Positions 14,271 to 21,009 of a DNA stretch of 24,992 nucleotides are shown one piece after another (within the stretch, counting starts at the first letter, position 1; each line of letters starts with the position of its first letter). Source of the DNA: Nanobdellota archaeon (GTDB taxonomy: Archaea; Nanobdellota; Nanobdellia; Pacearchaeales; GW2011-AR1); the NCBI GenBank assembly GCA_018830905.1, contig JAHJRM010000017.1, positions 1 through 24,992 of the forward strand, in the 5' to 3' direction. The notes beneath the pieces are model-generated. The model had not been told where the DNA came from. It worked only from the letters and a program-made list of their open reading frames with translations, and made no database searches. The position numbers were made by a program, and so were the translations under genes.

Positions 14271-14311
14271 TCCTTGTATGATTTTACCTGTTAATCGCGA
14301 GCGCAGCGAGC
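14271..14311 (+). repeat. Dispersed intergenic repeat, copy 3
   Basis: TCCTTGTATGATTTTACCTGTTAATCGCGAGCGCAGCGAGC, 22 nt behind the map stop. Confidence 0.9.
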
Positions 14312-16186: not shown

Positions 16187-16666
16187 TCATCCTCTATCCC
16201 GAACCCTTCTTGATTTGGGAATAAAATTACCAATCTTATTCTCAGAAGCCTTGCCAATCCCAAAAAAATCATTTCCATTTTTCATAACCAAAAAACCGTT
16301 CAACCCGGTTCGAATATTCAAATCCCTTCCGCGAATCCAATCGTCCATGCTCTTATCATCCATCTCAAAAATATTTTTAGTTATTTGATTTCTTAGAAGA
16401 CTAACTCCTTCAATACTCAACTTGATTTTATCATCAACCATTTTAGCAAAATAAACTCCAACACGCTCAATAATAACATTTTCCTCAAGCTTCTTCAATT
16501 TCCAACTCTCAAAATTTCCAGAATAAAAATACAATCTTTCTCTGCCTCTCATAACCATAGTCCCAGGAACATCTTTAATGCCAAATCTCTCCTGCAACTC
16601 AGACACAACCCTCTCTCTATCTTTCATTGCAACAATTCTCATAGGCACAAACTTATCAGAAACCAT
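16187..16666 (-). CDS. Stand-alone RsmF C-terminal / NIP7-like PUA domain protein
   Basis: ERVGVYF, KLSIEG, WIRGRDL, DFFGIGK...IGNFIPKSRR; TTAAAAAA 29 nt upstream of ATG 16666. Confidence 0.75.
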   Translation of the reverse strand: MVSDKFVPMRIVAMKDRERVVSELQERFGIKDVPGTMVMRGRERLYFYSGNFESWKLKKLEENVIIERVGVYFAKMVDDKIKLSIEGVSLLRNQITKNIFEMDDKSMDDWIRGRDLNIRTGLNGFLVMKNGNDFFGIGKASENKIGNFIPKSRRVRDRG

Positions 16667-16780
16667 AATCAAGAAAAGCTAAGACCGTTTTTTAATGTTT
16701 GTTTTATCATATCATTGTCATAAAAAGAGACTTCGCTAACGCTCAAAGTTAACTATGAATCTATCTGGAACTAGCATTAA

Positions 16781-16832
16781 CTTGTATGATTTTACTACAT
16801 TATCTTCAAGAAAATTTGCGAACGGAATAAGC
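16781..16832 (+). repeat. Dispersed intergenic repeat, copy 4
   Basis: CTTGTATGATTTTAC...TTATCT...AAATTTGCGAACGGAATAAGC, behind the pyk stop. Confidence 0.85.
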
Positions 16833-17562: not shown

Positions 17563-17760
17563 GATTCTAATAATTACCTTTCATTTTTTAATGTATTGCT
17601 TTTGACACAAGAAATCACGTTCACATACAGACTAATGGCTTTAACCTAAAAAAGTTCGTTATTTATCGGGATGTTTAACAAAAGAAATTTTATTATATAT
17701 TGTTAGTTGCAACTTAGTCCTTCGGACGTATTGCTTCGGCTTCGCCTCAGAAATTTATAT

Positions 17761-17792
17761 TAGAAATAATCTTCCCCCCGAAACGAATTTTC
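17761..17792. repeat. Left hybrid site A'-spacer-B of the prenyltransferase cassette
   Basis: TAGAAATAATCT-TCCCCCC-GAAACGAATTTTC. Confidence 0.8.
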
Positions 17793-18771
17793 ATTCATAT
17801 CTTTTTAACAAATCATAAAACTTATTTCTTTGCGTCATTGTTGTTGCAAATTCAATCATTCTTCTTGCCCTTGAATCTGAAAAGTCTGCAAGAATCTCTA
17901 AACCTTTATCACAATACTCTTGAGCTAATTGTTTTCCTTTTTCTATTACTCCATGTTGCACAACAATTTGTCTAACTTTTTCAATTTGATCAGGTGTTAA
18001 AGTTCTCTGACCAAAAAGTTCTTCTAACTCTTGTCTATCTTTTTCTGGGGCTTCACTTAAAGCAATCATATTTGGAAAAGTATATTTTCCTGCTCTAAAA
18101 TCTTCTAAATCTTTTCCAAAATCCCAAGTATCATTGGCGATTATATAGGCCATCCCTATATTCCTCCCTGCTAAACCTATTGCATCTAATTCTTCATTTG
18201 TGGCTTTTCCCAAAGTTGCTCCCAATCTTAATGCTCTCTCCCAAAAATTATAACCTTTAACTTTTTGTAAATATGTATTCATATCAGGTTCTCTTAAATT
18301 TAAGTCAATTAAAACTGCGTTTGCATTTTCTGAATCTAATTCAGCCAACTCTTCTATAGTTTTTCTAACAAGATTTGCTGAAAAATCTGAATTTAAGTCA
18401 TTTAACATTCTGTAAGACATAGAAGAGAAAATTCCTCCTAGTAGAATTAAGTCTGGATTTGCATGAGAATCAAGAACATCATCATAACAATAATAACCTG
18501 TGTCTTTTGCTTCAACAGAAGCACATGCAGGAATTGTTTTTTGCCAATTATTTCCTCCAGATAATTCATAAGCTATTCTTACTTGAGCAGGTCTTAATTG
18601 TGGTTTTCCAAATCTATACCTTTGCATAAGTTTTTGCATTAATTCTGGATTAGTATCATATTTTGATTGGATAAATTCTTTTACATAATGGTCTACAGCT
18701 TCAGCTGTTTCTTTCAGATATTCAAAATATTCAGTTCTTGCTTGATGCCTTTCTTTACTTTTCTTGCTCAT
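17791..18771 (-). CDS. Isoprenyl diphosphate synthase / class I terpenoid synthase fold protein, atypical
   Basis: GKPQLRP, DDVLD first Asp-rich motif, NDTWD second motif, DFRAGKYT; looks more A/T-ending at third codon positions than its neighbours (by eye). Confidence 0.85.
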   Translation of the reverse strand: MSKKSKERHQARTEYFEYLKETAEAVDHYVKEFIQSKYDTNPELMQKLMQRYRFGKPQLRPAQVRIAYELSGGNNWQKTIPACASVEAKDTGYYCYDDVLDSHANPDLILLGGIFSSMSYRMLNDLNSDFSANLVRKTIEELAELDSENANAVLIDLNLREPDMNTYLQKVKGYNFWERALRLGATLGKATNEELDAIGLAGRNIGMAYIIANDTWDFGKDLEDFRAGKYTFPNMIALSEAPEKDRQELEELFGQRTLTPDQIEKVRQIVVQHGVIEKGKQLAQEYCDKGLEILADFSDSRARRMIEFATTMTQRNKFYDLLKRYE

Positions 18772-18809
18772 AGTGATACTACTATTAAGTTAATATTTAT
18801 AAATCTTTA

Positions 18810-18840
18810 GAAAACTCGTTTCCACCCCAGATTATTTCTA
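18810..18840. repeat. Right hybrid site B'-spacer-A of the prenyltransferase cassette
   Basis: GAAAACTCGTTTC-CACCCC-AGATTATTTCTA. Confidence 0.8.
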
Positions 18841-19010
18841 TTTTTTTAGAAAAAAAGAAACAAAAAAGCGCGTGTGCCCTAAATTTTAGGCATTCCCTTT
18901 GGTCAGACAAATGTAACAGCGATTAAGAGATTCCAAAAACTTACAGGTTTCTCCGACCAAATCGCCTTCGGCTCGTGATTGATAATAAATAACGAAAAAA
19001 GAAACATGTC

Positions 19011-19118
19011 CTTGTATGATTTTACATATTATTTGTGAGTGAGCAATTCCGTGGTAGAGAGTAAAATTAATCAAATTTCTCGTGCGGAGTTGGGAATAGT
19101 CAGCGAGCTCCCCTTTCC
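19011..19118 (+). repeat. Dispersed intergenic repeat, copy 5 (long variant)
   Basis: CTTGTATGATTTTAC at 19011-19025, GTGAGTGAGC, and CAGCGAGCTCCCCTTTCC at 19101-19118 behind the Nop2 stop. Confidence 0.8.
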
Positions 19119-19126
19119 TAAAATAA

Positions 19127-20095
19127 TTAATCCCCAACCTTCCTAAACTTCGCAATGAAAAAACCTTCAGTCTCATCATCCTGAGGATAAATTCTGCAAG
19201 AGTACTTAACATCTTCAAGATACTCTCTCTCCTTCCATTTAGAAATTCCTTCTCGAGATTTAATCGGGATGTTAATTCTCTCAATCTTAATCTGTCCCTT
19301 AAACTCTTCCAAAATGGAATTAACAACACCCTCATTTTCTTCGGGCGAGTGCGTGCACGTGCTATAAACAATCTCTCCGCCCTTTTTCAAAATACTAAAC
19401 GCATTAGAAAAAAGATCCTTCTGAACTCCAGAAAGTTTCCTCACTGTGTTAATATTCCACATTATTGCAGTTTTAGGCGTGCTCCTCAAAGTTCCCTCTC
19501 CAGAACACGGCGCATCAATAAGAATCTTATCAAATCCATAATCCAACTTCTTCAACTTTCTACACAAAGCCGCACCATCCTGTTTTGTAATCACAACATT
19601 AGTCACACCGCATCTCTCAGTATTCGAAGCAAGTATCTTTATCCTTCCAAGACTAACCTCATTTGCAATTATTGTCCCCGTATTTTTCATAAGAGAAGCA
19701 ATCTGCGTAGTCTTACTCCCAGGAGCAGCGCACAAATCTAAAACTAATTCATCAGGTTTAGGATTTAAAGCAATAACAGGCAACATACTCGCAATCTCCT
19801 GAACATAATAATATCCCAAAACGTGCTCAACACTTCTTCCCAACTCTCCGGGCTCCAATTCATTTTCAATAATCATTATCTCTGGATTCTTCTTGAACTT
19901 TTGAGAAAGTTTCCACCCCTTAGCCTCAAGACGCTTTTTCAAATCTGAAGGAGAAATTTTAAGAGTATTACATCTAATAGACCGCGGCGGCTCCCTCTCG
20001 ATCGCCTCAATATAATTATCAAAATCGTCGCCAAGAAGTTCTTTCATTCTCTCAATAAAAAGAGGTTTCAAGTTTGCAGAATCTAATCTTGTCAT
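19127..20095 (-). CDS. Nop2/RsmB/RsmF-family RNA m5C methyltransferase
   Basis: YYVQEIASM, DLCAAPGSKT, DKILIDAPCSGEG, YSTCTHSPEENE, TEGFFIAK. Confidence 0.95.
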   Translation of the reverse strand: MTRLDSANLKPLFIERMKELLGDDFDNYIEAIEREPPRSIRCNTLKISPSDLKKRLEAKGWKLSQKFKKNPEIMIIENELEPGELGRSVEHVLGYYYVQEIASMLPVIALNPKPDELVLDLCAAPGSKTTQIASLMKNTGTIIANEVSLGRIKILASNTERCGVTNVVITKQDGAALCRKLKKLDYGFDKILIDAPCSGEGTLRSTPKTAIMWNINTVRKLSGVQKDLFSNAFSILKKGGEIVYSTCTHSPEENEGVVNSILEEFKGQIKIERINIPIKSREGISKWKEREYLEDVKYSCRIYPQDDETEGFFIAKFRKVGD

Positions 20096-20160: not shown

Positions 20161-20232
20161 AATAAACATCTTCAGTATGATTTTACCTTATTATCTCTCG
20201 GATAAATTTGCGAGCGTCAGCGAGCCTTCCTC
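20161..20232 (+). repeat. Dispersed intergenic repeat, copy 6
   Basis: AATAAACATC...TATGATTTTAC...TTATCT...AAATTTGCGAGCGTCAGCGAGCCTTCCTC; ends 6 nt from the stop of 20239-20844. Confidence 0.88.
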
Positions 20233-20844: not shown

Positions 20845-20950
20845 TTAAATTATAGAAAATGAATTAGCTTTATAAATCTTGCAGGAATCGCGGTGATGAT
20901 TCCCCTATCGGTTTTGGAATAGCCAAGTATTTCTAAAAAAACTCCCTAAA

Positions 20951-21009
20951 AAATAAACATATCCTTGTATGATTTCACCTGTTAATTGCGAACGTTAGTG
21001 AGCTTCCCC
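20951..21009 (+). repeat. Dispersed intergenic repeat, copy 7
   Basis: AAATAAACATATCCTTGTATGATTTCACCTGTTAATTGCGAACGTTAGTGAGCTTCCCC, abutting the polB stop. Confidence 0.9.

Follow-up and report, generated by a model that had tools for sequence, protein, structure and literature searches.

The 24,992-nt stretch examined here (the window; contig JAHJRM010000017.1 of assembly GCA_018830905.1) comes from a Nanobdellota archaeon, a small-genome DPANN archaeon whose related contigs are labelled Woesearchaeota, Nanoarchaeota or Pacearchaeota. The assembly to which it belongs (G000; G, C and L numbers denote genomes, contigs and loci) comprises 598 kb in 98 contigs and is 89% complete. A single minus-strand gene in the window, predicted to encode a 326-aa protein of the polyprenyl synthase family (PPS), is bracketed together with its TATA box by two composite sites, each consisting of an outer arm (A or A'), a C-rich spacer and an inner arm (B or B'). 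No recombinase gene lies between them. The features of the locus are as follows.

17611..18961 (no strand): stretch absent from the closest relative (G029) between the RsmF-type methyltransferase and pyruvate kinase genes; boundaries approximate (contig joint 17570 to 18962)
17625..17680 (+): left copy of a repeated hairpin-rich intergenic module, the S-block (CAGAC..AATGG.., ..CGGGATGTT), inferred from alignment by eye
17713..17760 (+): left frame, with two small hairpins (TTCG-type loops) and TTTATAT just before A
17761..17772 (+): A arm, TAGAAATAATCT, left site
17773..17779 (+): C-rich spacer TCCCCCC, left site
17780..17792 (+): B arm, GAAACGAATTTTC, left site, overlapping the stop codon of the gene by 2 nt
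17791..18771 (-): cargo gene, 326-aa polyprenyl synthase-family protein
18794..18803 (-): TATA box of the cargo gene, TTTATAAATA on the minus strand
18810..18822 (+): B' arm, GAAAACTCGTTTC, right site
18823..18828 (+): C-rich spacer CACCCC, right site
18829..18840 (+): A' arm, AGATTATTTCTA, right site
18841..18880 (+): right frame, with a T/A hairpin, an A-run and the GC-rich block GCGCGTGTGCCC (right copy of the outer inverted repeat, 18869-18880)
18900..18990 (+): right copy of the S-block (CAGACAAATGTAACAGCGATTAAGAG ... CGTGATTGATAAT), part of which is also present in the relative's 'empty' locus

The original prediction described two such hybrid sites around one gene, and this observation is confirmed as written. 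The A arms are complementary at 12/12 positions and the B arms at 12/13, whereas the spacers are C-rich on the + strand at both sites and are thus direct rather than inverted. These are the only two copies of the composite in the assembly. Because the window contains 44 exact 12-nt inverted pairs within 8 kb, a single arm means little, but only this pair has a second inverted arm beside it. None of 300 first-order Markov shuffles gave such a composite, and the inner arm alone reached 0 of 500 shuffles.

The match of the cargo protein to the Pfam polyprenyl_synt family is weak (E 3e-12). The protein keeps the first DDxxD motif (DDVLD) but its second motif reads NDTWD, and its named relatives come from Patescibacteria as well as DPANN.

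In the genus, the conserved gene order is family B DNA polymerase, (a membrane protein), an RsmF/NSUN-type methyltransferase, (a short pyruvate kinase), a PUA-domain protein and methionine aminopeptidase, and the gap between the methyltransferase and the kinase is about 0-30 bp. In the window this gap is 1564 bp. The methyltransferase (19127-20095, minus strand) lacks its PUA domain, which is encoded by a separate 161-aa gene (16187-16672, minus strand). These two genes are adjacent in most genus members but are separated here by a 230-aa, barrel-only pyruvate kinase gene and by the cassette.

Among 60 relatives, the polyprenyl synthase was not found in 57, and the three hits are distant paralogues. 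G029, the closest relative (94% amino-acid identity in the methyltransferase), has a 270-bp spacer at this locus that aligns with window positions 19195-19102 and 19039-18962 and then jumps to 17601-17547. A contig of such a relative in the source sample, approximately 89% identical, shows the same joint (17570 to 18962). The difference from the nearest relative is therefore about 1.36-1.39 kb, rather than the 1.08 kb between the A arms. Deletion at this locus cannot be excluded, however, because the relative's 'empty' locus still holds part of the hairpin module.

Cargo and frames in related genomes

Homologues of the gene at 80-82% identity in other metagenomes (L047 and L053) carry the same architecture. 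Their A arms are identical, G/C-rich spacers sit in the same relative orientation and the inner arms have drifted, and the flanks outside A are also conserved down to window position 17713. The L053 homologue (L053:90-1070; 80% identity) has an in-frame TAG where the window's protein has Trp (DTWDF), which may reflect a pseudogene, a sequencing error or recoding. A 72% homologue (L049-51) has decayed versions of the sites, and homologues at 77%, 68% and 65% identity (L048, L054, L055 and L058) keep the promoter and leader but have no arms at all. The promoter and leader are likewise conserved in the homologues with arms. The sites are therefore not the outer limit of what is inherited together, and the gene does not need them.

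Other cargo flanked by the same arms had been named beforehand as a test of the original prediction, and this came out positive for the A arms plus C-runs. A scan for the right frame and follow-up found the same left half (hairpins, TTTATAT, A and C-run) and right half (C-run, A', T/A hairpin, A-run and GC-rich block) around unrelated cargo of 0.8-6.9 kb in other Woesearchaeota-type genomes. L106 carries one 235-aa gene. L131 carries three genes, for a methyltransferase, a QueF-like protein and a Vut_1 transporter. L091, which equals G113:C4, carries three genes, for an APH-like kinase, a radical SAM/SPASM protein and one unknown. G113:C1 carries eight genes, including those for a glycosyltransferase, a radical SAM protein, a methyltransferase, an oxidoreductase and a NUDIX protein. 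G029:C49 carries seven genes, with a winged-helix regulator, two AdoMet decarboxylases, spermidine synthase, a radical SAM protein and a TehB-type methyltransferase, and the same cargo occurs in L214+L120. No cargo encodes a recombinase. Cargo genes lie on either strand and have their own promoters.

The A arm is invariant or differs by 1 nt in all related units, and A' is conserved in about a dozen DPANN contigs. A C-run lies on the same strand at both ends in almost every instance, although it is weak on the right in L131. Where units differ in cargo, homology often ends exactly at the inner edge of the C-run (the PPS, L213, L106 and L131 types). However, the commonest inner arm (CAGACTCGC / GCGAGTCTG) and an adjoining T/A hairpin are shared by units whose adjacent genes differ (L091, G113:C1, L143, L160, L129, L128 and G029). 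The inner inverted repeat is significant in the window, L047 and L091, whereas L106 and L131 have no inner repeat. The inner arm therefore belongs to the frame, or to an older layer of it, and not to each cargo.

The frames extend well beyond A. Two further exact inverted repeats lie outside A at fixed offsets, GGGCACGCGC at about -60/+34 and TTGAGTTT(GAG)TTTTA at about -78/+78. In L131 the same positions hold different but again complementary sequences (GTGAGCCGCC and TAGAAATTGTTGTA), which is covariation of two blocks. The two small hairpins of the left half also persist while their sequences differ between units. To the right follow about 250 nt of conserved hairpin modules ending in CGATGTTA, and the same module often precedes the left terminus. 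The window's copy keeps the right GC block but has lost the left outer repeats. No Rfam 15 family matched the frames in covariance-model searches, even at E up to 1-5. The first 9 nt of the outer GC block equal the 5' end of a tRNA-Gly(GCC) at G000:C76:2152-2269, but the match does not extend and we treat it as coincidence. This tRNA has a 47-nt intron and is missed without an intron search; a plain ARAGORN run found only 19 tRNAs in the assembly.

Other hairpin families occur in these genomes, which are full of intergenic hairpin modules. An abundant intergenic motif, CTTGTATGATTTTAC, followed by GC-rich hairpin units (GAGCGAYTTCGTGGTAGAGAG...CTCGTGCGAAGTYGGGA), sits just behind stop codons (window 16776-16806, 19009-19035, 20948-20991, 14271-14301, 2515-2544 on the minus strand and 20175-20216). 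It occurs on many contigs of G000 and G029 and forms a 58-nt tandem array on C5 (G000:C5:1237-1430), in agreement with the polar intergenic repeat family noted in this window alongside the original prediction. A second T/A hairpin family (GGGTTTCTTTTTTAGAAAAAAAGAAACTAC..GGTAGAAAAAAC; G000:C3:767, C4:2545 and C74:39) differs from the one in the right frame, and on C74 it lies between tRNA-like sequences.

The genes outside the frame are different in every genome. In G029:C49 (1630-7557; L059), a frame-plus-cargo unit of about 5.9 kb, running from TGTCCAATTGAG... to ...AAATCGCGATGTT, interrupts a gene for a roughly 380-aa protein that is intact in G000:C64 (1050-2200), and the protein alignment resumes exactly across the insert. 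The termini are defined by this single filled/empty pair, with no clear target duplication. G113 holds two units with different cargo that share 329 nt (95% identity) at the left and 348 nt (89% identity) at the right. The left site is rare, occurring in 4 of 301 sampled genomes of the order and in 2 of 42 of the genus, and the right frame was found in no viral contigs.

We also looked for the products that recombination in the spacers would leave. A search for an empty site (A, 3-14 nt, A') gave no hits in 401 genomes of the order with up to 2 mismatches, and exact scans of metagenome and genome contig collections gave only four unrelated hairpins. A partial search for a circle-type junction of the common inner arms turned up only unrelated bacterial hairpins, with none among DPANN contigs. 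In public assembled contigs, the cassette is in place without differences in three groundwater studies, with no sign of excision, although contigs cannot show rare forms. No empty frame or tandem array was seen.

A candidate recombinase

In G113:C1 the unit starts about 100 nt from the start of a gene for a 267-aa XerA-family tyrosine recombinase. The associated recombinases are 265-271 aa long; they score above cut-off for the NCBIfam model XerA_Arch but below cut-off, and in two separate stretches, for the integron integrase model TIGR02249. Between the recombinase gene and the unit lies a perfect 12-6-12 palindrome, AGATTATCAATA-ATAAAC-TATTGATAATCT (palindrome P; L348:5813-5842). The second unit of G113 keeps the palindrome and an internally deleted remnant of the same gene. 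G065 has the same recombinase class with ACATTATCAAGA-ATAAAC-TCTTGATAATGT (G065:C13; L358:360-389), in which both arms have changed together and the spacer is unchanged, as is the behavior of a real core site. A weaker version lies just upstream of the gene in G029 (G029:C71; L350:2328-2357). This class occurs in only 4 of 42 genomes of the genus, whereas a second, 41-48% identical class is common.

A' matches the arm of palindrome P at 9 of 12 positions, which is suggestive only. Judged by the polarity of the palindrome's arms, the spacer side of A and A' would face away from the C-runs, which does not fit a simple core site at A-C-run-B. The recombinase link rests on two genomes, and three genomes of the genus have the recombinase class but no A/C-run site. 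No tyrosine recombinase or P-like palindrome was found in the 89%-complete G000 assembly. This assembly does contain one serine recombinase and two IS200-type Y1 transposase genes (C76:101-463 and C94:9523-9885), one with an in-frame TGA, which share an end hairpin (CCGCACAC-TAAA-GTGTGCGG) unlike the frames and lie next to tRNA genes. No DEDD transposase (PF01548) of the IS110 type was matched in G000 or G029.

Interpretation of the frame and its cargo slot

Our analyses show that the sites are real and conserved, that they bracket a variable cargo slot inside a larger structured frame, and that frame plus cargo behaves as a rare mobile or lost-and-gained block. That a XerA paralogue with its own 12-6-12 core site handles these elements, that the A arms are its binding half-sites and that cargo is exchanged at or beside the C-runs are inferences from sequence. 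We tentatively favor, at somewhat less than even confidence, the reading that the two sites are the inner edges of the left and right halves of a conserved non-coding frame belonging to a rare, patchily distributed, recombinase-associated gene carrier of Woesearchaeota-type DPANN archaea. In this view, a complete unit would consist of a left terminus TGTCYAATTGAG, two outer inverted-repeat blocks, two hairpins, A, a C-run, (B), cargo of 1-8 accessory genes, (B'), a C-run, A', a T/A hairpin, the partners of the outer repeats and about 250 nt of hairpin modules ending CGCGATGTT. The whole unit would move or be lost as a block, with the cargo slot delimited by the two same-strand C-runs. The window's copy, which lacks the left outer repeats and any recombinase of its own, would most simply be a decayed, non-autonomous resident copy.

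The interpretation offered in the original prediction is partly supported. That the locus is part of a mobile or variable, non-autonomous element is supported, and a tyrosine recombinase link is plausible. Taken literally, however, the model of a 1.08-kb single-gene cassette that entered by crossover inside the C-rich spacer, leaving attL/attR-like hybrids of a palindromic target (A-spacer-A') and a palindromic cassette site (B'-spacer-B), appears unlikely. The site geometry of 12-7-13 and 13-6-12 fits a tyrosine recombinase core, the similar same-strand spacers and the XerA-family gene associated with the element family are consistent with it, and the model remains possible for cargo exchange, its best support being where homology breaks. 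Yet neither predicted product was found in the searches above, the B arm and its hairpin are the same beside different cargo, A and B are unrelated half-sites with A oriented backwards relative to the arm of P, close homologues of the gene exist without any arms, flanks outside A are conserved together with the gene and the indel against the nearest relative is larger than the cassette.

It is also possible, though less likely still, that the sites have no role in mobility and that the frames are conserved regulatory or structural DNA or RNA (promoter, terminator, insulator, or long-range pairing of flanking transcripts) travelling with a variable island, the arms being protein- or RNA-pairing sites. 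TTTATAT lies just before A, about 26 nt upstream of the start of B, T-rich runs and hairpins with TTCG-type loops flank the sites, all on one strand, and the hairpins are kept with changed sequence. On the other hand, the frame is single-copy or absent per genome rather than a general signal, it matches no Rfam family, cargo genes have their own promoters on either strand, a perfect inverted repeat would serve symmetric signals better than same-strand C-runs, and the unit interrupts a coding gene in G029.

A classical cut-and-paste insertion, in which B and B' (12/13) are terminal inverted repeats of a small transposase-less element with a passenger, the C-run (CCCCCC on both sides) is its 6-7 bp target-site duplication and A/A' is a palindromic target, would explain inverted arms with a direct spacer without any special recombinase, but it is doubtful because at least five unrelated inserts would have to have hit the same few bases of the same frame, the spacers are not exact duplicates (7 versus 6 nt, one mismatch), the B-type sequence is shared by units with different cargo, no second copy of the B arms exists in G000, no IS110 enzyme was found and the two IS200-type genes have unlike ends. 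Replication-origin ORB-type repeats were ruled out because the C-runs are direct rather than mirrored, and the chromosomal dif because 40 of 42 genus genomes lack the frame. A mirror model with crossover outside the A arms was not favored because the 6 nt outside A and A' differ (TTATAT versus TTTTCT or TTTTTT).

Among described systems, the element would work most like pdif modules, integron cassettes or IMEX elements. The pdif modules of Acinetobacter plasmids are gene modules bounded by XerC/XerD-type sites in inverse orientation, in which one or a few accessory genes without a recombinase lie between two composite sites, each with two different arms and a roughly 6-nt spacer and with mirrored arm order at the two ends, and for which the enzyme is thought to be a host Xer-type recombinase. 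Here, the spacers are on the same strand, the arms are unrelated to each other and to known dif arms, the sites are embedded in a 130-400 nt conserved frame with further nested repeats, the host is a DPANN archaeon and no array of modules is seen. A Xer/dif core site has two 11-13 bp arms that are inverted copies of each other around a 6-8 bp spacer; the 12-7-13 geometry fits, but A and B are unrelated within a site, whereas palindrome P is a perfect 12-6-12.

Integron cassettes and attC sites, including those of archaeal integrons (Ghaly et al. 2022, PMC9668308), share with the element diverse accessory cargo, patchy distribution, a tyrosine recombinase gene next to the insertion platform (here in one genome) and paired arms around an unpairable central spacer. 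However, the recombinase lacks the integron-specific additional domain, the sequences as read have no RYYYAAC/GTTRRRY boxes of the kind found in 57-141 nt attC sites at the 3' end of each arrayed cassette, cargo genes keep their own promoters, there is one slot per unit rather than an array, and the palindromic partners lie kilobases apart across the cargo. Like IMEX elements (integrative elements exploiting Xer at dif), the element is recombinase-less DNA flanked by hybrid Xer-type sites with a common spacer, but its frame is not the chromosomal dif, occurs in non-syntenic places and even inside a gene, and no intact target site was found. IS1111/IS110-type insertions share the formal layout of palindromic target arms, a short direct core and subterminal inverted repeats, but no DEDD transposase was found in G000 or G029, the cargo consists of ordinary metabolic genes and the inner arms are shared between different cargos.

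A more far-reaching possibility, which we consider unlikely on present evidence, is that Woesearchaeota-type DPANN archaea carry an undescribed gene-capture system in which a XerA paralogue with its own 12-6-12 core site would load and exchange promoter-bearing gene cassettes into a structured platform at composite sites (A arm, polar C-run and inner arm). Such a system would be functionally like an integron or pdif system but unrelated in its sites and in how the cassettes are built.

DPANN archaea have tiny genomes and depend on hosts, and how they gain accessory metabolism is poorly understood. A conserved, structured frame that carries different metabolic genes (here including a polyprenyl synthase, a polyamine synthesis cluster, radical SAM enzymes, methyltransferases and a queuosine-precursor transporter) and lands in different genome places would be a concrete vehicle for gene flow in this group, with defined DNA sites and a candidate recombinase that can be tested in vitro. 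If the frames prove to be only regulatory, they are still an unusually conserved non-coding element of these genomes.
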